DNA of 64,000 nucleotides, taken from the IMG/VR virus record IMGVR_UViG_3300032285_002884. One strand, 5' to 3'. The notes below the pieces were generated by a model. That model was not told the origin of the DNA. It was given only the letters and a program-made list of their open reading frames with translations, and did not search any database. The stretch is from a virus. A program made the translations under genes and the position numbers. This document shows, one piece after another, positions 14,157-23,520 of this stretch. Position 1 is the stretch's first letter. Each line of letters opens with the position of its first letter.

Positions 14157-14310
14157 ATGATTATATTTTTTGATCATCTCGACGTGTTTGTGTCTGCAGC
14201 ACAAGTGGCAAGCCGTAAGGATTGGAATTGACAGGTCGCCGTCTAGGTAGGTGGGGTTCCTCCTGTCCGCGTTGTTAAAGCAAGGGAAGCTCGAAAGGGC
14301 TTCCCTTTTT
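14157..14310 (+). ncRNA. candidate structured, pseudoknotted ncRNA
   Basis: Own promoter and terminator; helices GACGTG/CGCGTT, TTTGTG/CACAAG, GACAGG/CCTGTC, TCGCC/GGTGG; pseudoknot GGAATT/GGTTCC. Confidence 0.55.
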
Positions 14311-14311
14311 T
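14282..14311 (+). terminator. Rho-independent terminator
   Basis: AAGGGAAGCTC-GAAA-GGGCTTCCCTT plus T-tract. Confidence 0.9.
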
Positions 14312-14356
14312 ATTAGATAAATATCATATCGCGGCTATGAGCTAATAGGATTAAGC

Positions 14357-15304
14357 ATGAAGTCTTTTAAGAGCTTTATCACCGAAGGCATAAGACAGGG
14401 TCTTCCTCACATCACTACTATGGACCATAACCAGATAAGCGATCTGGTTCACGGTGGAAAAGTCAAGATAGATCAGGCGACTGAGAAGACTGACGGATCT
14501 ACCATGATGATGGGCCACGACGAGCATGGATTCTATACACAGAGTTCGGGTTCCGGTGACGAGAGGATGAGGGAGCCCGCCGACTATATCGATAGAGCCA
14601 AGAGACGAGCTGAACAGACTGGTAAGCCTCTCGACCTGACCGCCGCTAACGCGTTCGGCGAGGCACATGCTCAGATGCAGGGCAACAAGAACCTTACCGA
14701 CCATCTTAAGCAGAGGGCTGAAGAGTCCGGCGGTGAGACCAAGGTCCGCGGTGAGCTATTCTCCAAGAGACTCTCCCGACCTTCTGAGACTCCTGGCGAG
14801 ATCAAGTTCGTCGGAACGTCTTACGACCCCAGCCACATGGGCAGCACCGGAAAGTTCGTCATCCATACCAAGCTCCCAGAGAACCAAGGACACGATGTCG
14901 AGAAGTTTAAGAACGAGTTGTCTACTCCCGGACTCAACTTCGACGACGACAACATCAAGGGCTTCAAGCCAAGCGAGATCGATGTCGCCAAGGAAGCCAA
15001 GGACCTCGGCAGCGTGAACAGGGAGCTCCTCTCTTCTAGGACTACCCCTAAGAACAAGGCTGCTAAGGAAGCCGAGAACGAGAAGCTGATGGAGATCAAG
15101 AAGAGGGTCTCCGACAAAGTCGACACACACATCAAGTCTCAAGGATTCTCTCCTAAGTGGGGTTCAGGATCCGAGGGTATCGTAGTCCACCCACCTAAGA
15201 ACTCGACAGCACCAAGATTCAAAGTAACGTCTGACGCATTCAGGGAGTACAAGGCTGACCCTGAGAACGCGAAGAAGTTCAAAGAAAGGACCCCGAAGCA
15301 ATGA
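14357..15304 (+). CDS. RNA-ligase-like covalent nucleotidyltransferase with capsid-targeting N-terminus
   Basis: Motifs I EKTDG, III RGELF, IV EGIVV, V RFKV; N-terminus MKSFKSFITE; ATAAATA at 14317. Confidence 0.75.
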   Translation: MKSFKSFITEGIRQGLPHITTMDHNQISDLVHGGKVKIDQATEKTDGSTMMMGHDEHGFYTQSSGSGDERMREPADYIDRAKRRAEQTGKPLDLTAANAFGEAHAQMQGNKNLTDHLKQRAEESGGETKVRGELFSKRLSRPSETPGEIKFVGTSYDPSHMGSTGKFVIHTKLPENQGHDVEKFKNELSTPGLNFDDDNIKGFKPSEIDVAKEAKDLGSVNRELLSSRTTPKNKAAKEAENEKLMEIKKRVSDKVDTHIKSQGFSPKWGSGSEGIVVHPPKNSTAPRFKVTSDAFREYKADPENAKKFKERTPKQ

Positions 15305-16785
15305 TCACTTTCAAGAACTTCATACTCAAAGAAGGCGGCAACATCAAGGTCAAGACCGTCGACGGCGAGGTAGCTGCGGCTCCGTTCAAGGTCAAGGACA
15401 GGTCAAAGCAGGCAGGCGATATCAAGGACGCTCTCGGAGCCATGCACGACTCCTTTAGTAAGGAGCACGGAGCAGACCTCTTTGGTAAAGGTAAGAAGGC
15501 ACTTAATTCAGGTTCAATGTTTGCTGGCTCGACTCGTCAGTTCATGGACTCCAGTATCCCTGATGATGAGTTCAAGAAGCACAAGCCGATCGTCGGCGAC
15601 ATCGACGCACAGTTCCCAGCTGAGCACAAGGACAAGCTAGTTACACACCTGACTCCTGGACGCAAGTTCGGTAAGTATACTGTAATCGGTACAAGGAAGC
15701 ACGGCACCGAGGTCTCTGCGGTAATCAAGCACGACAACGGCGAGCACCATCAGGTCGACTTTGAGCCAGTTCACTATCATAACGATGAGCCGACTCCAGG
15801 CGAGCAGCTTTTGCACAACTCATCATGGGAAGACACTAAGGCCGGCATAAAGGGTCTCCACCACAAGGTGCTCCTCAACGCAACGGGTCTCGACCACCAT
15901 AAGTTCTCTATCAGCCACGGACTAAGGTCTAGGTCTGATGAGTCAGACATGGGAGTCAAGGAACCTGAGCAGGTCACATCGGGACTGTTCGGCAAGAAAG
16001 CAGATCCGAGCAAGATAACGTCATTCCAGGGCGTAACGCAGCTCATCAAGAAGCACATCCCTAAGGAACAGCATCAGGCCATCTACGAGAAGTTCAGGGA
16101 CAGCGTAAGCAAGATGAAGGGTACCGACCACTCGGCAGCCCTAGCCCACCTCAGACAGCATCTGGACGTCAAGGACGCCGTCAGCGAGGAGAGCATGGGC
16201 GACCAGCACGCCTCGGCCATCCCTATGGTAGGTTTCAGCCCGATCTCTCACATGGGACACGCGCAGGACCTCGGCGGAGCGCTGAAAAAGCTTCCGGGAT
16301 CAAAGCACATCGGCATCTCCTCTAAGGCTGACGCTTTCTCTCCCGAAGAGAGAAAGTCTATCCTTAGCAGACAGTGGGGCGACACCGACAACAATCACGT
16401 CCATATCGTAGGCGGTGCAGGCGAGACTATCAGGAGAGCCCATGACTCGATGACTGGTCCTGGAAGAAAGATCCTACATATTCTCGTAGGTAAGGACAGG
16501 GCATCGTTTGCCGAGGGTCTCAAGAAGTCACTCGAGCAGGGCAAGATAAAGGAGATGGAGGGTCGCAAGTTCGACGAGGTCCACGTTCACTATCCCGAGG
16601 ATACCGAGCGGACCCACGGCATGAGCGGTACTAGGATGAGGGCGGCGGCTAACGAGGACGGCAAGGATGCCGCCGACGAGTTCCACCGCCACTTAGGTTC
16701 GATGTTCAGTCGCGATGAGTCGAACAACATCAAGAGCAAGATCAAGGCAGGAATCCAGTCAGGTAAGATCCCACTTAAGAGGTAA
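15301..16785 (+). CDS. two-domain nucleotidyltransferase (pol-beta-like + HIGH/cytidylyltransferase-like), capsid-targeted
   Basis: AGS...GDID...QVDF; then SHMGH, VGKDR, MSGTRMR; N-terminus MITFKNFILKE. Confidence 0.75.
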   Translation: MITFKNFILKEGGNIKVKTVDGEVAAAPFKVKDRSKQAGDIKDALGAMHDSFSKEHGADLFGKGKKALNSGSMFAGSTRQFMDSSIPDDEFKKHKPIVGDIDAQFPAEHKDKLVTHLTPGRKFGKYTVIGTRKHGTEVSAVIKHDNGEHHQVDFEPVHYHNDEPTPGEQLLHNSSWEDTKAGIKGLHHKVLLNATGLDHHKFSISHGLRSRSDESDMGVKEPEQVTSGLFGKKADPSKITSFQGVTQLIKKHIPKEQHQAIYEKFRDSVSKMKGTDHSAALAHLRQHLDVKDAVSEESMGDQHASAIPMVGFSPISHMGHAQDLGGALKKLPGSKHIGISSKADAFSPEERKSILSRQWGDTDNNHVHIVGGAGETIRRAHDSMTGPGRKILHILVGKDRASFAEGLKKSLEQGKIKEMEGRKFDEVHVHYPEDTERTHGMSGTRMRAAANEDGKDAADEFHRHLGSMFSRDESNNIKSKIKAGIQSGKIPLKR

Positions 16786-16790
16786 GGTAG

Positions 16791-17396
16791 ATGAAGAGCT
16801 TCAGCGAGTACATCATAGAGAACAGCGTACACTTCTTCGACGTCGACAAGACGCTGATGGACACGGGTAGTACTCACGTGCACGTCAAGGACGAGAACGG
16901 CAATACCGTGCAGAAGCTCGACCCGCAGGAGTACAACCATCACAAGCTGCAGCCCGGTCACAGCTACGACTTCCACGAGTTCAAATCATCCGATAAGTTC
17001 GCCAAGTCAGCAAAGCCTATCCGCAAGGTGCTGGCTAAGATGAAGGCTATCAAGAAGAACGGCGGTAGGACTGAGATCTTAACTGCCCGCGCTGACTTCG
17101 ACGACAAGGACAAGTTCGCTAAGAAGTGGAAGTCTTTCGGTGTCGACATCGGTCCAGGTCAGACCCACGTCAGGCGAGCCGGTAACATCAAGCTTCCAAC
17201 TCACGAGGCTAAGGCTAAGATCATATCTGATCAGATCAAGAAGAACGGATATAAGAAAGTTCACCTGTACGACGATCACTTACCTAACATACAATCGATG
17301 ATGGACCTCAAGAAAGATCATCCCGACGTCGAGTTCCACGGATATCACGTAAAGCACGGTCCCGATGGCGTGACCATGGACCACTACAAGGCATAA
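16791..17396 (+). CDS. HAD-family phosphatase (RNA-repair type), capsid-targeted
   Basis: FDVDKTL, LTAR, K and YDD motifs; N-terminus MKSFSEYIIE. Confidence 0.8.
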   Translation: MKSFSEYIIENSVHFFDVDKTLMDTGSTHVHVKDENGNTVQKLDPQEYNHHKLQPGHSYDFHEFKSSDKFAKSAKPIRKVLAKMKAIKKNGGRTEILTARADFDDKDKFAKKWKSFGVDIGPGQTHVRRAGNIKLPTHEAKAKIISDQIKKNGYKKVHLYDDHLPNIQSMMDLKKDHPDVEFHGYHVKHGPDGVTMDHYKA

Positions 17397-17397
17397 G

Positions 17398-18126
17398 ATG
17401 ATAGACGAAGAGAAGCTTCTAAAAAGTTTTGCCAAGGCTCTCGGCGCTGAGAATGTGCTGTCTGCTATGGAAGAGAAGAAGATTAAAGAGAAGAAGCTTC
17501 TCGAGAGTATGGACAGGGCTCTCTATAGAATAAGCAATCCGCCGATTGAGGACTTAGCTCCAGCTGTTAATGTTAAAGAAGAACTCAAAGAAGAAGCCGT
17601 TAGTGAAGAAGTCACTCTGATTACTGAGATCGGCAGGCAACCAGAACCTCAGCTTCCAAAGAACGACATCATCAACGCTACGGTCAAGGCACTCTCTGCA
17701 GCGCCTCAAGAAAAGATCCAGCAGGTAGCAGACGGGATTCCAGACTCATACCGTAAAGAGCTCGACATCATAAAGAAGTCAATAGCCGACTTCCACAGGT
17801 TCGCTCTAAACCATTCACAGCTCGGCGGTGGCGGTGCAGGAGACATGGTCCATCTCGATCACCCTGCAAAGACCGTCTATTCAGACTATACATTTACAAA
17901 CAAAGACTACTATGTCGGAGTCGGAGCTACCCCTGCTACGATAACTTTGCCGGCCAAAGCTAAGAACGGCAGGTATATAATAATCAAAGACGAGGTCGGT
18001 AACTGCTCGTCTAACCCTATTACAGTACTCGGAACTGTCGACAACGACTCAGGCGGGTTCATTCTCGCAGAGAATAACGGCGGCGTTCAAATGATCTATA
18101 ACAATGGAAGTTGGAGAATAGTATGA
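17398..18126 (+). CDS. putative virion protein (GGGGAG hinge plus C-terminal beta domain)
   Basis: ITLP...G..IIIKDE...ITV...YN..W.I fibre-like C-terminus. Confidence 0.65.
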   Translation: MIDEEKLLKSFAKALGAENVLSAMEEKKIKEKKLLESMDRALYRISNPPIEDLAPAVNVKEELKEEAVSEEVTLITEIGRQPEPQLPKNDIINATVKALSAAPQEKIQQVADGIPDSYRKELDIIKKSIADFHRFALNHSQLGGGGAGDMVHLDHPAKTVYSDYTFTNKDYYVGVGATPATITLPAKAKNGRYIIIKDEVGNCSSNPITVLGTVDNDSGGFILAENNGGVQMIYNNGSWRIV

Positions 18127-19559
18127 CGTATCTCTTTAGCAATACCATCGGCGGTAACGTCAGCATCTTCAACAGCAACAGCGTCGCTATCACGGCGACT
18201 AACAGGCTTCCGGTCGATATCGGCAACTCATCAGTTAACTTCCCTGCTACGCAGAACGTTCAGGTACTCTCGAATACTACAAACTACGTCTTCGTACAGC
18301 AAGCCCCTACTTGGTCGGTCGATGCCCTATCAAAGCTTAGGGTGTCTACTATTCAGAATCAAGACTTCTTTACTCCAGTCGTCGACGATGATACCACGTA
18401 CAAGTGGAATCAGGCAACTGTCGGTACTCTAGCAAACTCGTCTTTCCTAGCAAACACGTCTGAGATCTCCATGACATCGGGTAACTCGGCGTCAGGTTCA
18501 GTGATAAGACAGACCTACGTCAAGTACAAGATCATTCCTGGAACTTCACATACCGTCTATACTACAGTCAACTTCAGTGCAAACAGCACCGACAGCGGCG
18601 TGACTCGTCGTACTGGAATGTTTGATACCAATGACGGCATCTTCTGGGAACAGAATGCCAACACTCTCGCAGTCGTTGTTAGGAGAACTCTGGCTAACGG
18701 GTCTATAGTAGAAGATAGGACGTATGCTAACAACTTCAACACAGACAAGCTCGACGGTACCGGACCTTCAGGGTTCAATATATTCTCAAAAGGTCTGAAT
18801 AACTACTATACTTTCTGGTTCGACATGATCGGAGGCAGGACAGGTCGTATTAGATTTGGTATGGGCGGCCCCAACGGTCCTCAGATCTGTCATGTTCAGA
18901 GCTACAGCGGCGTCAACGCGCAGAACACCAACTTTATATCTGCTGCGAGCTTGCCTCTCAGAAGAGAGATCTTCAACAGCACGGTACAGCCGAACATCCC
19001 ATACTTTAACATGTCGGGAATCGCGTATCAGGCAGAAGCCCCGACTAGATACAACTCATCACCGGCTACCGCCTACAACATCAATGGCTTCGTTCCAGGA
19101 AATTCTTTGACTCCGATACTGACCATCGGTCTGAGATCGGGTACACCGTACGACCACTCAGACATATCTCCAGGAGAGTTCACTCTCGTAGAGCAGAACA
19201 ACCAAGGTAAGAACGCGACTGCGGGTACCTTCCTCTACACCGTAGTCTACAACGCAAACGTGAACGGGACTTACGCCTATGCCGGCAACAGCTCAGTCTC
19301 TAACTCGACGATAGGAAGGTCGGCTAGGCAGTGGACTTGGTCGAACACCGCTACGATCTCAGGAGGTCTAACAGTTCTCTCAGGGGTAACTCAGTCGGGC
19401 ATCGGACAGCAGATCTTCGACGGATTGCCGGACACGTTCAACCTCGGTTCGGACATAAACCGCAATCCCGCTACGCTTACCATCTGCATCCAGCAACTGA
19501 CTGCTGGCGGCGGTGCTTCAAACGTAGTCTGTACTTGGAACTTCGTAGAACAGCTCTGA
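18123..19559 (+). CDS. putative virion structural protein (beta-rich, Asn/Ser/Thr-rich)
   Basis: WN.DKLDGTGPSG and GRIRFG motifs seen in phage structural proteins. Confidence 0.65.
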   Translation: MTYLFSNTIGGNVSIFNSNSVAITATNRLPVDIGNSSVNFPATQNVQVLSNTTNYVFVQQAPTWSVDALSKLRVSTIQNQDFFTPVVDDDTTYKWNQATVGTLANSSFLANTSEISMTSGNSASGSVIRQTYVKYKIIPGTSHTVYTTVNFSANSTDSGVTRRTGMFDTNDGIFWEQNANTLAVVVRRTLANGSIVEDRTYANNFNTDKLDGTGPSGFNIFSKGLNNYYTFWFDMIGGRTGRIRFGMGGPNGPQICHVQSYSGVNAQNTNFISAASLPLRREIFNSTVQPNIPYFNMSGIAYQAEAPTRYNSSPATAYNINGFVPGNSLTPILTIGLRSGTPYDHSDISPGEFTLVEQNNQGKNATAGTFLYTVVYNANVNGTYAYAGNSSVSNSTIGRSARQWTWSNTATISGGLTVLSGVTQSGIGQQIFDGLPDTFNLGSDINRNPATLTICIQQLTAGGGASNVVCTWNFVEQL

Positions 19560-19561
19560 TG

Positions 19562-19703
19562 TATAAATAAAAATGCGGTGCAGTAAAAAGGCTACGGCAA
19601 TCCTGCGCGATGTTCATGGATAAGCCCAAGGGAAACTCCAATGCTAAGAAAGAACGATCTCCCTAGTCCTCAGCTAGAATTGGTTGAGCATGGCGCAGGA
19701 GAT
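19562..19703 (+). promoter_or_regulatory. late promoter TATAAATA plus a highly structured leader overlapping the start codon
   Basis: GTGCAG/CTGCGC, C(UACG)G loop, TGGA/TCCA enclosing the SD, ATCTCC/GGAGAT. Confidence 0.5.
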
Positions 19704-20492
19704 GTCGTAGTCCTCACCGACAAGATCAAGCTCTCCCTATACAAGAAGTCTAAATCCAGCGGGTTCGACACGGACACGCTAGAAGAAGTGTACCTTCGTG
19801 GGCTCGAGAGCTTCTATTCACTATACGAGAGCGTCGAGATCACAGAGACGCCAGAACAGTACGCATTCAACAGGGTTAACTCATTTATAGCGGGTGGAGC
19901 TGCAGCAGAGATGGATAAAGATCTACAAGAGAAGCGCGGCCTTTGGGACAACATCCACGCCAAGCGCGAGAGAATCAAGCACGGTTCTGGCGAACACATG
20001 AGAAAGCCTGGATCAAAGGGAGCCCCTACTGCTGATGACTTTAGATCGTCACAGGTCAAGGAAGGCGAGACCCAGTCCAAGGATCAAGACGACCCGAGCT
20101 CAAGGTTCGTCGGCACAGACTCACTGGTCAACATCTACAAGAAAGACACTCCTGGCTACATCGACACCATCAAGAAGACGGTTCGTGAGTCGGTCGAGAG
20201 GTCTGAGTGTGAGAACGGTACCTGCCCATGCATGGTCAATGAGGCCAAGTTTCAGGGCAGAGAGGTACCACTCAACAAGCCTATGAAGGGCGACGTCAAG
20301 AAGTCAAAGGTGTTCGTCAAGGATCCATCGACTGGAAACGTTAAGAAGGTAAACTTCGGCGACAAGACCCTCAGCATCAAGAAGAACCAGCCAGCTCGCA
20401 AGCGCTCCTACTGCGCACGCTCGAGTGGACAGGGTAACCTCACAGACAAGACCAAGGCTAACTACTGGTCACGTCGCGCTTGGGACTGCTGA
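19641..20492 (+). CDS. modular internal head polyprotein (C-terminal DUF6321-like module)
   Basis: Modules separated by (L/V)xE sites: LQE|KRGLWDNIHAKR and VNE|AKFQGREV...ANYWS. Confidence 0.7.
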   Translation: MLRKNDLPSPQLELVEHGAGDVVVLTDKIKLSLYKKSKSSGFDTDTLEEVYLRGLESFYSLYESVEITETPEQYAFNRVNSFIAGGAAAEMDKDLQEKRGLWDNIHAKRERIKHGSGEHMRKPGSKGAPTADDFRSSQVKEGETQSKDQDDPSSRFVGTDSLVNIYKKDTPGYIDTIKKTVRESVERSECENGTCPCMVNEAKFQGREVPLNKPMKGDVKKSKVFVKDPSTGNVKKVNFGDKTLSIKKNQPARKRSYCARSSGQGNLTDKTKANYWSRRAWDC

Positions 20493-20493
20493 A

Positions 20494-20649
20494 ATGAAGA
20501 AGTTTAGAGAATATATAGCTGAGCTGGACGTCAGAGACGCTTCTGGTAAAGTTATACATATAAAGAAGGTACCGATCAGAATGGCTGACGGCACCATCAA
20601 GATGAAAGATCCCGGTAAGAGCGGAAGCTCCGGCGGGGGTGGAAAATAA
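20494..20649 (+). CDS. small internal head protein
   Basis: N-terminus MKKFREYIAE resembles the T4 IP capsid-targeting sequence. Confidence 0.65.
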   Translation: MKKFREYIAELDVRDASGKVIHIKKVPIRMADGTIKMKDPGKSGSSGGGGK

Positions 20650-21342: not shown

Positions 21343-23520
21343 ATGAAGTACTCGAGCTTAGAATCACAGATCAGACGCGTTATGGAAGCTAAGGCTGACC
21401 GTAACTCTAAAGCGCGTGAGAAGATAGTCAACGTCGCTAGACAAGACGACGCAGCCCCGACTGACCCTAGGTCTAAGCTCGTTAAGCAGGCCGAGATCAA
21501 GACCAAGGTCATCGACGAGAACGAGATCCTCAGCGAGGTCAACCGAGACCCAGACTTTCAGAGCTTCCTAGACCAGAATAAGTGGAAGACTGGAAGCGAG
21601 ACTAAAGTTGGACAGTCTTTCACGTTTGGTGGAAAGTCGGATGCAGTTCGCGCAGGTGAGGGGCCATATCAGGTCTATCAGCGTCTAAGCACGCAGAAAG
21701 AAAAGCCTGCCGTTCCTTCATCTACCCCTTCTGACAACGGTCCAAAGCCTACACCTAAAGACACGACTCCGACAGCGACACCGAGCGCTGCCGACGATTC
21801 AAAGAGCGGCAACAGCCCACTCGCAGCAGGGATCAAGTCGTACGACAGGGACGCGCTCGATAAGATGAACGACAAGATGAGCGCTGATCAGCAGGCACTG
21901 CGCGATCGCTCATACGAGCGTTCCATTCCAAAGCCGCAGGTCGCTGCTTCTGTACCTTCTGACAACGGTCCAAAGCCGTCACCAAAGTCTCCAGAGCCTT
22001 CTCAGTCACGCGACTCTGGCGGATCTCAGTCGGCTCCTGCAAAGTCCCCTGAGCCTTCACAGTCACGCGACTCGGGCGGATCTCAGTCAGCGCCTGATTC
22101 CGGTGACAATGAAAGACTCAAGTCGACTTATGACCTCACCGATAAGTTTGCTGATCGTGGTCGTGAGACAATGTCGCCTCTCACTGGCACGCGTGCAGGT
22201 ACTTCTACCCGTTCATTTGCCGGCGATATGGCCAACATCGGCATCGACGTCAAATCAAAGAAAGACACAGTCAAGGAATCTATTCTTAGAGTAATAAACT
22301 CAAAAGATAATAGAAAACAAAAAGATGAGGAACTCTTGTTCGGAAAAGGTCCTCCGGATAACATGCCCATTCCTCCTTCCAATGTTAACGGCCGTATAGA
22401 TACTTCAATGTCTTCACCAAAGATGCCTCGCATAGATCCTGCAAAGGACGCGGCTCTATTAGGTATAACTAAGACTGCAAAGATGCCTAGCGTATATGAT
22501 TCGTGGCCATTTGCTAAAGCCATATCTGACGAGAAAGTCCCTGCTGTTAAGAAGTCTGTAAAAGAGTCGATCTTAAAAGTTACTGATCCTAAGGCCAACG
22601 ACGCTAGGAAGATCATGGGTGGTCAGACTCAGATCGATCTAAACCCTAAGACCGACGATCGCCCTGAGATCGAGCAGCAGGCTAAGAAGAAGCCGGTCTT
22701 CAAGAGCAACTTCAATGCCCCTATCAAGGAGCAGGACTCACATTATGGCTCTGCAGGTACTAGCCTTCATCAGAAGGAGAGGGAAGCAAAGCGCCGTCGC
22801 GACGATCTAGAAGACAAGAGTCAGACTAGAGCACAGATGAATAAACTTAAGCCAAAGATGGAGGAAGAAGAGATGTCAGACGCAGTATTGACGGAGAAGG
22901 AGCTGGCAGCTCTCGAGGAGATCGCAGCCTCATTCTCTGAAGGTAAGAAGATCAAGGAAGGCAGCAACAAGCCTACCGTCGGCAACCAAGCCGGTGAGAA
23001 GGGCGACCAGAGCGGTGAGAACCCAAAGAACAGCACCGCTCGCTACGACATCAGCGACGAGGTAGTCGTTGAGAAGCTCGTAGGCGGTCAGAAGAACCTT
23101 GACAAGAACCACAACGGTAAGATCGACGCAGAAGACTTCAAGCTTCTAAAGAAGAGCAAGATGAAAGAAGAAGTCGAGATGACTATTCTCTCAGCAGAGC
23201 ATATAGAGCGCTTCAACGCCGTACTCGAGGCAGAGGCAGTCAAGCGCGGTCGCGGTCGTCCTAAGAAGAACCCAGAAGGTGACGAGCCACGTCCAGAAGG
23301 TCGTGACCCACGTCAGCACATCCAGGTCATCGCTGGTCAGGCCGGTGCAGGCCGCGTCATCGACTTCAAGCACGACGACGGCTCGTCGACAAAGATCACA
23401 GCCCCTATGGGCAGGTCAATCGTCGCCCATCTAAACAACCTCAAGCCAAAAGAGCGTCACGACGCCGTCCAGTCTATCCACGGCAGTGCCGGCGGTCTAA
23501 AGAAGACAATGGGAATCTAA
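21343..23520 (+). CDS. large low-complexity internal head polyprotein
   Basis: Many (V/L/I)xE sites; EF-hand-like DKNHNGKIDAEDF; AT-hook KRGRGRPKK; Pro/Ser repeats. Confidence 0.7.
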   Translation: MKYSSLESQIRRVMEAKADRNSKAREKIVNVARQDDAAPTDPRSKLVKQAEIKTKVIDENEILSEVNRDPDFQSFLDQNKWKTGSETKVGQSFTFGGKSDAVRAGEGPYQVYQRLSTQKEKPAVPSSTPSDNGPKPTPKDTTPTATPSAADDSKSGNSPLAAGIKSYDRDALDKMNDKMSADQQALRDRSYERSIPKPQVAASVPSDNGPKPSPKSPEPSQSRDSGGSQSAPAKSPEPSQSRDSGGSQSAPDSGDNERLKSTYDLTDKFADRGRETMSPLTGTRAGTSTRSFAGDMANIGIDVKSKKDTVKESILRVINSKDNRKQKDEELLFGKGPPDNMPIPPSNVNGRIDTSMSSPKMPRIDPAKDAALLGITKTAKMPSVYDSWPFAKAISDEKVPAVKKSVKESILKVTDPKANDARKIMGGQTQIDLNPKTDDRPEIEQQAKKKPVFKSNFNAPIKEQDSHYGSAGTSLHQKEREAKRRRDDLEDKSQTRAQMNKLKPKMEEEEMSDAVLTEKELAALEEIAASFSEGKKIKEGSNKPTVGNQAGEKGDQSGENPKNSTARYDISDEVVVEKLVGGQKNLDKNHNGKIDAEDFKLLKKSKMKEEVEMTILSAEHIERFNAVLEAEAVKRGRGRPKKNPEGDEPRPEGRDPRQHIQVIAGQAGAGRVIDFKHDDGSSTKITAPMGRSIVAHLNNLKPKERHDAVQSIHGSAGGLKKTMGI
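21985..22095 (+). repeat. 2 x 57-nt coding tandem repeat (KSPEPSQSRDSGGSQSAP)
   Basis: Direct repeat with synonymous divergence. Confidence 0.85.

Follow-up and report, generated by a model that had tools for sequence, protein, structure and literature searches.

Introduction

The internal proteins of bacteriophage T4 (IPI, IPII, IPIII), like its ADP-ribosyltransferase Alt, are basic products of late genes and carry a propeptide of 10-11 residues that is cut by gp21 at an [I/L]-x-E site; a targeting sequence directs them to the head, from which they are ejected. The T4 capsid-targeting sequence (CTS) reads MKTYQEFIAE (PMC8442874), and T4 genetics has assigned targeting to its residues 4 and 7 and processing to residues 8 and 10 (PMC9026906). 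Alt, processed at ITE-6 and LTE-619 (PMC5694885), is a precedent for an enzyme as cargo, and the T4 internal-protein loci are variable, with many unrelated cargoes. Nearly all work on packaging by means of the CTS concerns T4 and phages close to it, whose cargo consists of small inhibitors and Alt. Here we describe a comparable locus at positions 14,357 to 17,396 of a 64,000-nucleotide stretch of viral DNA (the window, bases 32001-96000 of the 150,648-bp IMG/VR virus record IMGVR_UViG_3300032285_002884; 50.7% G+C, estimated to be 91% complete), in which three consecutive genes, named A, B and C below, begin with leaders of the T4 pattern and encode four predicted enzyme domains. In our judgement the best overall explanation, and one towards which we lean, is a T4-like internal-protein locus whose products are break-repair enzymes packaged in the head and ejected from it.

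The locus shares with T4 the short propeptide, the type of cut, late genes, basic products and variability. Unlike the T4 internal proteins, its cargo would be nucleotidyl-transfer and phosphatase enzymes, which are not known as head cargo, its genes are fused in relatives (to 2,202 aa) or split, with leaders or cut sites at every boundary, and it belongs to a distant phage lineage. We found no description in the literature of a head-packaged ligase, nor of a CTS outside the T-even phages. The route itself is known; what is new here is the cargo class, the lineage and a natural dissection of targeting and cleavage signals.

The enzymes themselves have counterparts in three groups of described systems. 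An RNA-ligase-type domain and a HAD (DxDxT) phosphatase occur together in T4 Pnkp with Rnl1 or Rnl2, in bacterial Pnkp/Hen1 and in fungal Trl1, and relatives of our locus add a P-loop kinase. Those systems are not known to be packaged, however, and in the present phage the kinase is missing, Pol X-like and NMNAT-like domains are extra, and the sequence similarity lies under family thresholds. A 3'-phosphatase, nucleotide addition by a Pol-beta fold and a ligase are likewise brought together in PNKP/Pol beta/ligase III, in bacterial LigD and in African swine fever virus (ASFV) Pol X with its ligase; unlike these sets, our locus has an RNA-ligase-like enzyme with no OB domain, no lyase or fingers domain, and no homology detectable in sequence. 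The third group comprises polyvalent proteins and MuF- or portal-fused effectors (Iyer et al. 2017; PMC5512222, PMC9503650), described as multi-domain, predicted to be virion-borne and acting at entry. Some relatives of the cassette are similarly giant polyproteins, with an HExxH-like segment, but delivery here would depend on a short CTS and protease sites, three separate genes are involved and we saw neither a MuF nor a portal domain. The passages searched in those two papers do not report a ligase, Pol X-like, NMNAT-like and HAD repertoire as cargo.

A shared leader on three genes

Gene A (14357..15304, + strand, 315 aa) starts MKSFKSFITE, gene B (15301..16785, +, 494 aa) starts MITFKNFILKE and gene C (16791..17396, +, 201 aa) starts MKSFSEYIIE, as the sequence-only reading that drew attention to this DNA had quoted them. 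All three N-termini fit M-x-x-F-x-x-[FY]-I-x(1,2)-E. The leader of A (14357..14386, +) is a predicted propeptide cut after the nearly invariant E10, the leader of B (15301..15333, +) would be cut after E11, directly before GGN, within an invariant E11-G12-G13-N14, and the leader of C occupies 16791-16820. When compared with the positions mapped in T4, A, B and C alike have F4 and F7 or Y7, in agreement with the T4-type propeptide of 10-20 residues, in which each of these two positions is hydrophobic or aromatic, and their protease sites of the form [L/I]-x-E read ITE, LKE and IIE, respectively.

We scanned the genome in six frames for ORFs (open reading frames) of at least 60 aa beginning with M-[KRIT]-[ST]-[FYL]-x-x-[FYW]-[ILV]-x(1,2)-E. 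Among such ORFs in the 150-kb genome the motif is found on A, B and C only, and a looser pattern added just four weak, unrelated matches. Conservation was then measured in 120 clusters per family, about 360 metagenomic homologues from three unrelated families. For A, 112 of 118 homologues carry the leader, for B 95 of 110 and for C 105 of 110; the other B homologues mostly have a longer leader, again with [LI]-x-E at its end. More than 90% of the homologues have F at position 4, more than 95% have F or Y at position 7, the P3 residue is I or L in about 95%, and the Glu is invariant or nearly so. The intervening residues are free to vary, which places the constraint on the protein.

The same leader is borne by at least 15 further unrelated ORF families in 47 related IMG/VR loci, among them small basic proteins, a GP88-family protein and a family whose members measure 330-400 aa. 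With so many unrelated leader-bearing families, the region 3' of gp41 is comparable to the loci for internal proteins in T-even phages, which are variable too. In a sister phage (L004), whose A is 94% identical, an additional 72-aa leader-bearing ORF (MKTFREYVMSE..., L004:9879-10097) lies between B and C, which points to recent gain or loss of cargo genes inside the cassette.

The virus is an uncultured T4-like phage with homologues of UvsX and gp41 just 5' of the cassette, and its gp41 is about 60% identical to counterparts in cyanophage-type and other distant T4-likes. The genome also encodes a prohead protease of the gp21 type (PF03420, 4.2e-33, above the cut-off; G000 129521-130189). The N-terminus of this gp21 homologue (G000:C1:129521-130189), MKLITELTE-QVEYITE, holds two [LI]-T-E sites; autoprocessing of T4 gp21 has been proposed likewise.

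Leaderless, fused and split homologues

In the predicted models the leaders are disordered, with a predicted local distance difference test (pLDDT) score of about 40 (38 in A, 41 in B) against 89-92 in the domains. A homologue of the B N-terminal domain in Vibrio phage Va1 begins M-GGNVSV with stop codons just upstream and is thus leaderless, and in Campylobacter phage homologues of the same domain MKLSELMFILE precedes GGN. Many distant A homologues start M-(S)IRQG, apparently without a leader, so that homologues lacking one begin where the mature protein is predicted to start. When leaderless A homologues were sought, a scan of viral contigs returned leader-bearing T4-like loci only, and a scan of metagenome contigs returned no relative.

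Gene fusions separate the two functions of the leader. A and B are fused in a large number of genomes, and all 22 internal junctions examined keep [ILVM]-x-E before GG[NS], but the two aromatic targeting positions survive in just 4/22 and 6/22. Keeping the cut site while mostly losing the targeting aromatics is what is expected if an internal copy need only be cut. The reverse situation is seen in five loci in which B is split into two genes: the first ends ...LGVKD, and the second has a full leader of its own, placed directly before the conserved HH-x-S-V-I-P segment. In the intact B of our phage this boundary corresponds to the inter-domain linker (residues 294-299; 16180..16197, +), where the cut is predicted at V294-S295-E296/E297. 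E296 is nearly invariant, and D-A-V-S-E296|E297 coincides with the split-gene boundary. Residues 294-299 are the sole disordered stretch between the two domains of B (pLDDT <50), so that the VSE|E linker pointed out beforehand does fall in a region predicted to be disordered.

Some relatives go further and encode polyproteins of 805-2,202 aa that hold A, both halves of B and further domains. The longest of them (L021:7998-14606, 2,202 aa) contains A, both B halves, a HELVHH (zincin-like) segment, a P-loop kinase (Zeta_toxin/AAA_33) and a C-terminal DUF6321. A chance origin of the leader was rejected on its conservation together with the pattern of fusion and fission. From these comparisons of sequence the leader appears to be a separable module that ends at a cleavage site.

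Virion evidence

Indirect evidence for packaging comes from Campylobacter phage vB_CcoM-IBB_35, in which 38 proteins were identified by electrospray ionization tandem mass spectrometry in purified virions. Gene 1-56 is among them, with 17% coverage (PMC3322345, Table S2), and was annotated as having no homologs (PMC3322345). We find that it is a homologue of the B N-terminal domain (BLASTP 4e-16) with the catalytic motifs conserved and the leader MKLSELMFILE before GGN. One of the four enzyme families is therefore a virion component in a T4-like phage other than the one studied here.

The leader could instead have nothing to do with packaging, A, B and C being cytoplasmic late enzymes that happen to have an N-terminal motif in common, perhaps one that serves translation or folding. 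In favour of such a role, the virion support is drawn from IBB_35, whose proteome reports no N-terminal processing. However, the motif equals the T4 CTS at the functionally mapped positions and is common to many unrelated proteins, the models show it as disordered, it is missing from leaderless homologues, only its cut site persists at fusion junctions, and one homologue is a virion protein; we hold this explanation to be very improbable. The packaging and processing of A, B and C, in contrast, appear well supported by the comparative evidence, and we take them to be probable. The sequence-only reading had pictured late, CTS-tagged proteins cut after Glu, with the halves of B set free and everything packaged and injected; the comparisons and the IBB_35 virion homologue now lend strong support to that picture. 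The sequence features, the modelled folds, the pattern among relatives and one homologue in virions are observed, and for this phage we infer the packaging, the cleavage, the ejection and the substrates.

Gene A and gene C

Gene A is predicted, from its motifs and its modelled fold, to encode an RNA-ligase-like covalent nucleotidyltransferase. All 51 sequences compared keep motifs I, III, IV and V, namely K44-x-D46-G47 (EKTDG), G132-E133, E273-G274 and F288-K289, the last of which follows R287, invariant or nearly so. The predicted model (pLDDT 89) has ligases as its top Foldseek matches, and among its 18 top structural matches 17 belong to ligases or to adenylyltransferase domains of the ligase type. 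First comes Naegleria Rnl5 (5cot; Z 9.5, root-mean-square deviation 3.7, 187 aligned residues), followed by REL1 (Z 9.0), T4 Rnl1 (8.8), Rnl2 (8.6) and Trl1 (8.4), whereas DNA ligases reach at most 7.2. The Pfam family RNA_ligase (PF09414) matches 11 of the 51 A relatives at E up to 0.05 (best 3.3e-4); A itself scores 14.7 bits against a cut-off of 27 and does not reach the gathering threshold. A has no OB domain, the nucleotidyltransferase domain taking up residues 10-300 of 315 and the model ending with motif V and two short helices. The possibility that A is a replicative DNA ligase was rejected in view of its late promoter, its leader, the missing OB domain and its affinities with RNA ligases. 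ATP- and NAD-dependent DNA ligases (PF01068, PF01653) were undetected in the 91%-complete genome, in which A is the sole ligase-like gene. To our knowledge, T4-like cyanophages generally have no ligase.

Gene C encodes a HAD phosphatase in which D17, D19 and T21 (HAD motif I, DxDxT) and the motif IV pair D161 and D162 are invariant. PF03767 (HAD class IIIB) is found in 25 of 46 members of the family and HAD_PNKP in one, and C matches phrog_415, a polynucleotide kinase family, at 1.1e-5. The protein encoded in the window has no Pfam match itself.

A ligase of this type next to such a phosphatase may suggest a packaged RNA repair kit, in which host or phage tRNAs cut by anticodon nucleases or other defence RNases would be healed and sealed, with the Pol-beta-fold enzyme restoring 3' nucleotides. 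The RNA-ligase matches of A (Z 8.4-9.5 and PF09414) and the PHROG polynucleotide-kinase match of C argue for it, and the P-loop kinase added in the polyprotein of relatives would complete a kinase-phosphatase-ligase trio. However, this phage lacks the kinase, no CCA-adding enzyme figures among the top 50 structural hits of the B N-terminal domain, and T4 Pnkp and Rnl1 are early proteins that are not known to be packaged. In addition, the survey of polyvalent proteins (PMC5512222) reported no RNA ligases together with the 2H domains that packaged polyvalent proteins carry. We consider an RNA kit possible, although rather unlikely.

Gene B

The N-terminal domain of B (residues 12-296; 15334..16188, +) is predicted to belong to the Pol-beta superfamily of nucleotidyltransferases and is nearest to the palm and thumb of Pol X. 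All 54 sequences compared have G76, D100, D102 and D153, and at least 90% have S77. Its structural matches, over 160-180 residues, are Tth PolX (Z 8.5), pol beta (8.4), pol lambda (8.3) and ASFV PolX (7.9), the last of which has the same minimal layout of palm and thumb. Foldseek also returned PolX and pol lambda, and phrog_19290 matches at 3.7e-13. In a language-model atlas the domain is linked to viral clusters with NTP_transf_2 or DNA_pol_B_palm/thumb in a minority of their members. No counterparts of the fingers or 8-kDa domains are present in it, and a Pfam search of its distant homologues at E up to 5 gave no polymerase or nucleotidyltransferase model. The leaderless Va1 homologue (L001 1-1059) is located a few genes 3' of an annotated tRNA nucleotidyltransferase, which makes it probable that the family is not simply a CCA-adding enzyme.

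These affinities bring in another candidate function, a packaged kit for DNA breaks in the phage's own genome just after its injection, whether they stem from sunlight or oxidation suffered in the particle or from nucleases of the host. The phosphatase would strip 3'-phosphates, the Pol X-like domain would fill gaps and the ligase would close nicks, much as in single-strand-break repair by PNKP/Pol beta/ligase, in bacterial LigD or with the ASFV pair of Pol X and ligase. Besides the Pol X palm and thumb, which are the best structural match of the B N-terminal domain, DNA_pol_B_palm or DNA_pol_B_thumb turns up in 13-19% of the members of related Atlas clusters, a 3'-phosphatase with no kinase suffices for DNA breaks with 3'-P and 5'-P ends, the 91%-complete genome holds no other DNA ligase, and A, B and C are basic. 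On the other hand, A is nearest to RNA ligases and lacks the OB domain of DNA ligases, the B N-terminal domain has neither 8-kDa nor fingers domain and reaches no Pfam polymerase model, and the NMNAT-like domain would go unexplained. We rate a kit for DNA breaks as possible, although rather unlikely. Given the Pol X-like domain and the lack of a 5'-kinase, DNA-break repair is nonetheless at least as plausible as RNA repair. The functions first proposed for the cassette, RNA repair or a nucleotide-metabolite counter-defence, are accordingly candidates beside DNA repair, an NAD-centred role included.

The C-terminal domain of B (residues 297-494; 16189..16785, +) is a HIGH-type adenylyltransferase of the NMNAT/PPAT kind, in which H317-M-G319-H320 and S442-G443-T444-x-x-R447 are invariant. 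It matches NadM (2qjt, Z 11.9), PPAT (11.6), archaeal NMNAT (11.3) and NadR (10.0) in structure and phrog_395 at 5.5e-4, and a distant fused relative passes PF01467. In one relative (L036:6342-8198) an NMNAT/PPAT-like domain that bears a separate leader is joined to a P-loop kinase (FITGGPGSGKD), an arrangement that recalls NadR (NMNAT plus ribosylnicotinamide kinase). A second, canonical CTP_transf_like gene (PF01467, 4.7e-11, about 150 aa) lies outside the window (G000:C1:21928-22308, - strand).

The cassette could accordingly be directed at nucleotides and NAD as a packaged counter-defence. The NMNAT-like domain would rebuild NAD+, perhaps with the HAD enzyme as nucleotidase and the NadR-like kinase fusion of relatives, or the enzymes would alter immune signalling nucleotides on arrival. 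Small molecules or proteins would then be the substrates of the ligase-like and the Pol-beta-fold domain; we find this reading improbable. The NMN adenylyltransferases that best match the B C-terminal domain, the NadR-like fusion in L036 and the similarity of the C family to class-B acid phosphatases, which act on nucleotides, are in keeping with a role in NAD metabolism, and packaged NAD and ADP-ribose enzymes are predicted to be common in myoviruses (PMC9503650). Against it, PPAT matches nearly as well as NadM, so that the substrate is not fixed, a lysine nucleotidyltransferase with all its ligase motifs intact has no role in it, and the phage has the separate CTP_transf_like gene elsewhere.

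Composition and association of the domains

Taken together, the alignments of the families bear out the catalytic motifs quoted beforehand for A, B and C, with residues that vary little or not at all, and each of the four domain assignments (ligase-type, Pol-beta-fold, HIGH-type and HAD) has gained support from fold or profile evidence. The three proteins had also been described as His-rich. With a genome median of 1.9%, this holds for B (7.1%) and C (8.0%) and less so for A (3.8%). Metal binding and a pH-dependent charge inside the head are two possibilities for what His richness does. Many A homologues are also His-rich, and runs such as HHxVH and HxHxH are seen in relatives. A, B and C are all basic, with a pI near 9.

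A and the B N-terminal domain are adjacent wherever a contig extends past A, in about 40 of 47 loci of the first scan and in most loci of the second. The position of C varies, or C is absent from the fetched stretch, in related loci. Fused relatives have the domain orders A-BN-BC, BN-A-BC, BC-A and A-BC (BN and BC being the two halves of B). Such recurrent association in sequence suggests that the domains are functionally coupled.

Probable late transcription and neighbouring genes

The genes of the cassette are closely packed, A and B overlapping in ATGA, B and C being 5 nt apart and C lying 1 nt from the next gene. A strong intrinsic terminator (14282..14312, +; an 11-bp stem with 6 G-C pairs followed by a T-tract) closes the upstream unit and isolates the cassette's own promoter. 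Right after it stands the late-promoter motif GATAAATA, of the T4-like NATAAATA type (14316..14323, +), in intergenic DNA 40 nt 5' of the ATG of A. The ATAAATA that had been read from the letters as a late promoter lies at 14317. On the + strand this heptamer has 37 occurrences where about 9 are expected, and most of them stand 20-60 nt 5' of gene starts. In related loci the motif is found 26-50 nt 5' of A in 12 of 32 cases, and in the remaining loci another gene abuts A.

No + strand terminator was detected between 14357 and 19559, and the next TATAAATA is at 19563. This interval includes two abutting downstream genes (17398..19559, +) of 242 aa and 482 aa, the second of which encodes a virion structural protein (phrog_1645, 5.3e-39). 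Both are probably part of the A-B-C late transcript, as judged from the DNA. The promoter motif, the uninterrupted stretch up to 19559 and the virion gene 3' of the cassette make a late operon shared with virion genes likely.

Behind the TATAAATA at 19563 follow two + strand ORFs of 283 aa (19641-20492) and 725 aa (21343-23520), which are of low complexity and basic or charged. The 283-aa protein shares the GLWDNIHAKRERIK segment (phrog_16028), which in related loci directly follows the leader MLSFSEFITE (before KNGLWDN...). Both proteins may be further head-internal proteins. Directly 3' of the 283-aa ORF, a 51-aa basic ORF (20494..20649, +) begins with a fourth leader, MKKFREYIAE, and is conserved in the sister contig L004. 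Its N-terminus is nearly the T4 CTS. On its sequence, the 51-aa ORF is a candidate small internal protein.

A proposed sequence of events

In the mechanism that we propose, A, B and C would be transcribed late with virion genes, and each product would be docked by its CTS to the prohead's scaffolding core. The gp21-type protease would then cut after the Glu of [I/L]-x-E and probably also at V-S-E296 in the linker of B. The filled head would thus contain four free basic enzymes, of RNA-ligase type, Pol X-like, NMNAT/PPAT-like and a HAD phosphatase, to be ejected with the DNA and to act before any phage gene expression. In the most economical chemistry, at broken ends of nucleic acids, the phosphatase would strip 3'-phosphates, the Pol-beta-fold enzyme would add nucleotides and the ligase would seal. 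As phosphatase, Pol-beta-fold enzyme and ligase together make up the chemistry of end healing, filling and sealing, a break-repair kit is favoured. A bolder version, which we put forward as tentative and would not expect to hold in full, is that the head carries a complete repair kit, with 3'-phosphatase, Pol X-like enzyme, ligase and an NAD- or adenylate-supplying transferase, all made as CTS-tagged proteins or polyproteins for the prohead protease to cut apart, that mends the incoming genome or host RNAs before the first phage gene is expressed.

Several observations weigh against packaged break-repair enzymes. The virion-proteome support consists of one homologue of the B N-terminal domain, with A and C outside it. 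The structural Z scores of 8-9 for A and the B N-terminal domain are just moderately above background, and the sequence-level family matches of the window's own proteins all lie under curated cut-offs. Neither phmmer nor profile searches with the three proteins matched a PDB sequence, and in tblastn neither A nor C hit any of 50,697 phage records, so that no cultured phage there has A or C. A search of this genome for a 5'-kinase was negative, which would leave the classical repair of RNA breaks with 5'-OH and 2',3'-cyclic-phosphate ends incomplete. Finally, the NMNAT/PPAT-like domain has no obvious role in healing, filling and sealing.

Other searches were negative as well. Blastn with the cassette DNA gave no match in the same 50,697 phage records, and an NCBIfam search with A, B and C found none. 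A weak AAA_33 match in the genome was rejected as a polynucleotide kinase, since it is the clamp-loader gene.

Implications

The locus suggests that CTS delivery extends far outside the T-even group and serves a different class of cargo. If the proposal is true, this would be the first phage known to carry its own repair enzymes as virion cargo, and the first seconds of infection would include repair or rewiring of nucleic acids and cofactors, beyond the blocking of restriction. A practical rule follows for finding ejected proteins in metagenomic T4-likes, namely an N-terminal F-x-x-F/Y-[IL]-x-E in a genome that has gp21. The fused and split genes provide natural evidence that the determinants of targeting and of cleavage are separable, which is useful for engineering protein delivery of the T4 type, and the families are a source of compact, divergent ligases and Pol X-like enzymes for biochemistry.

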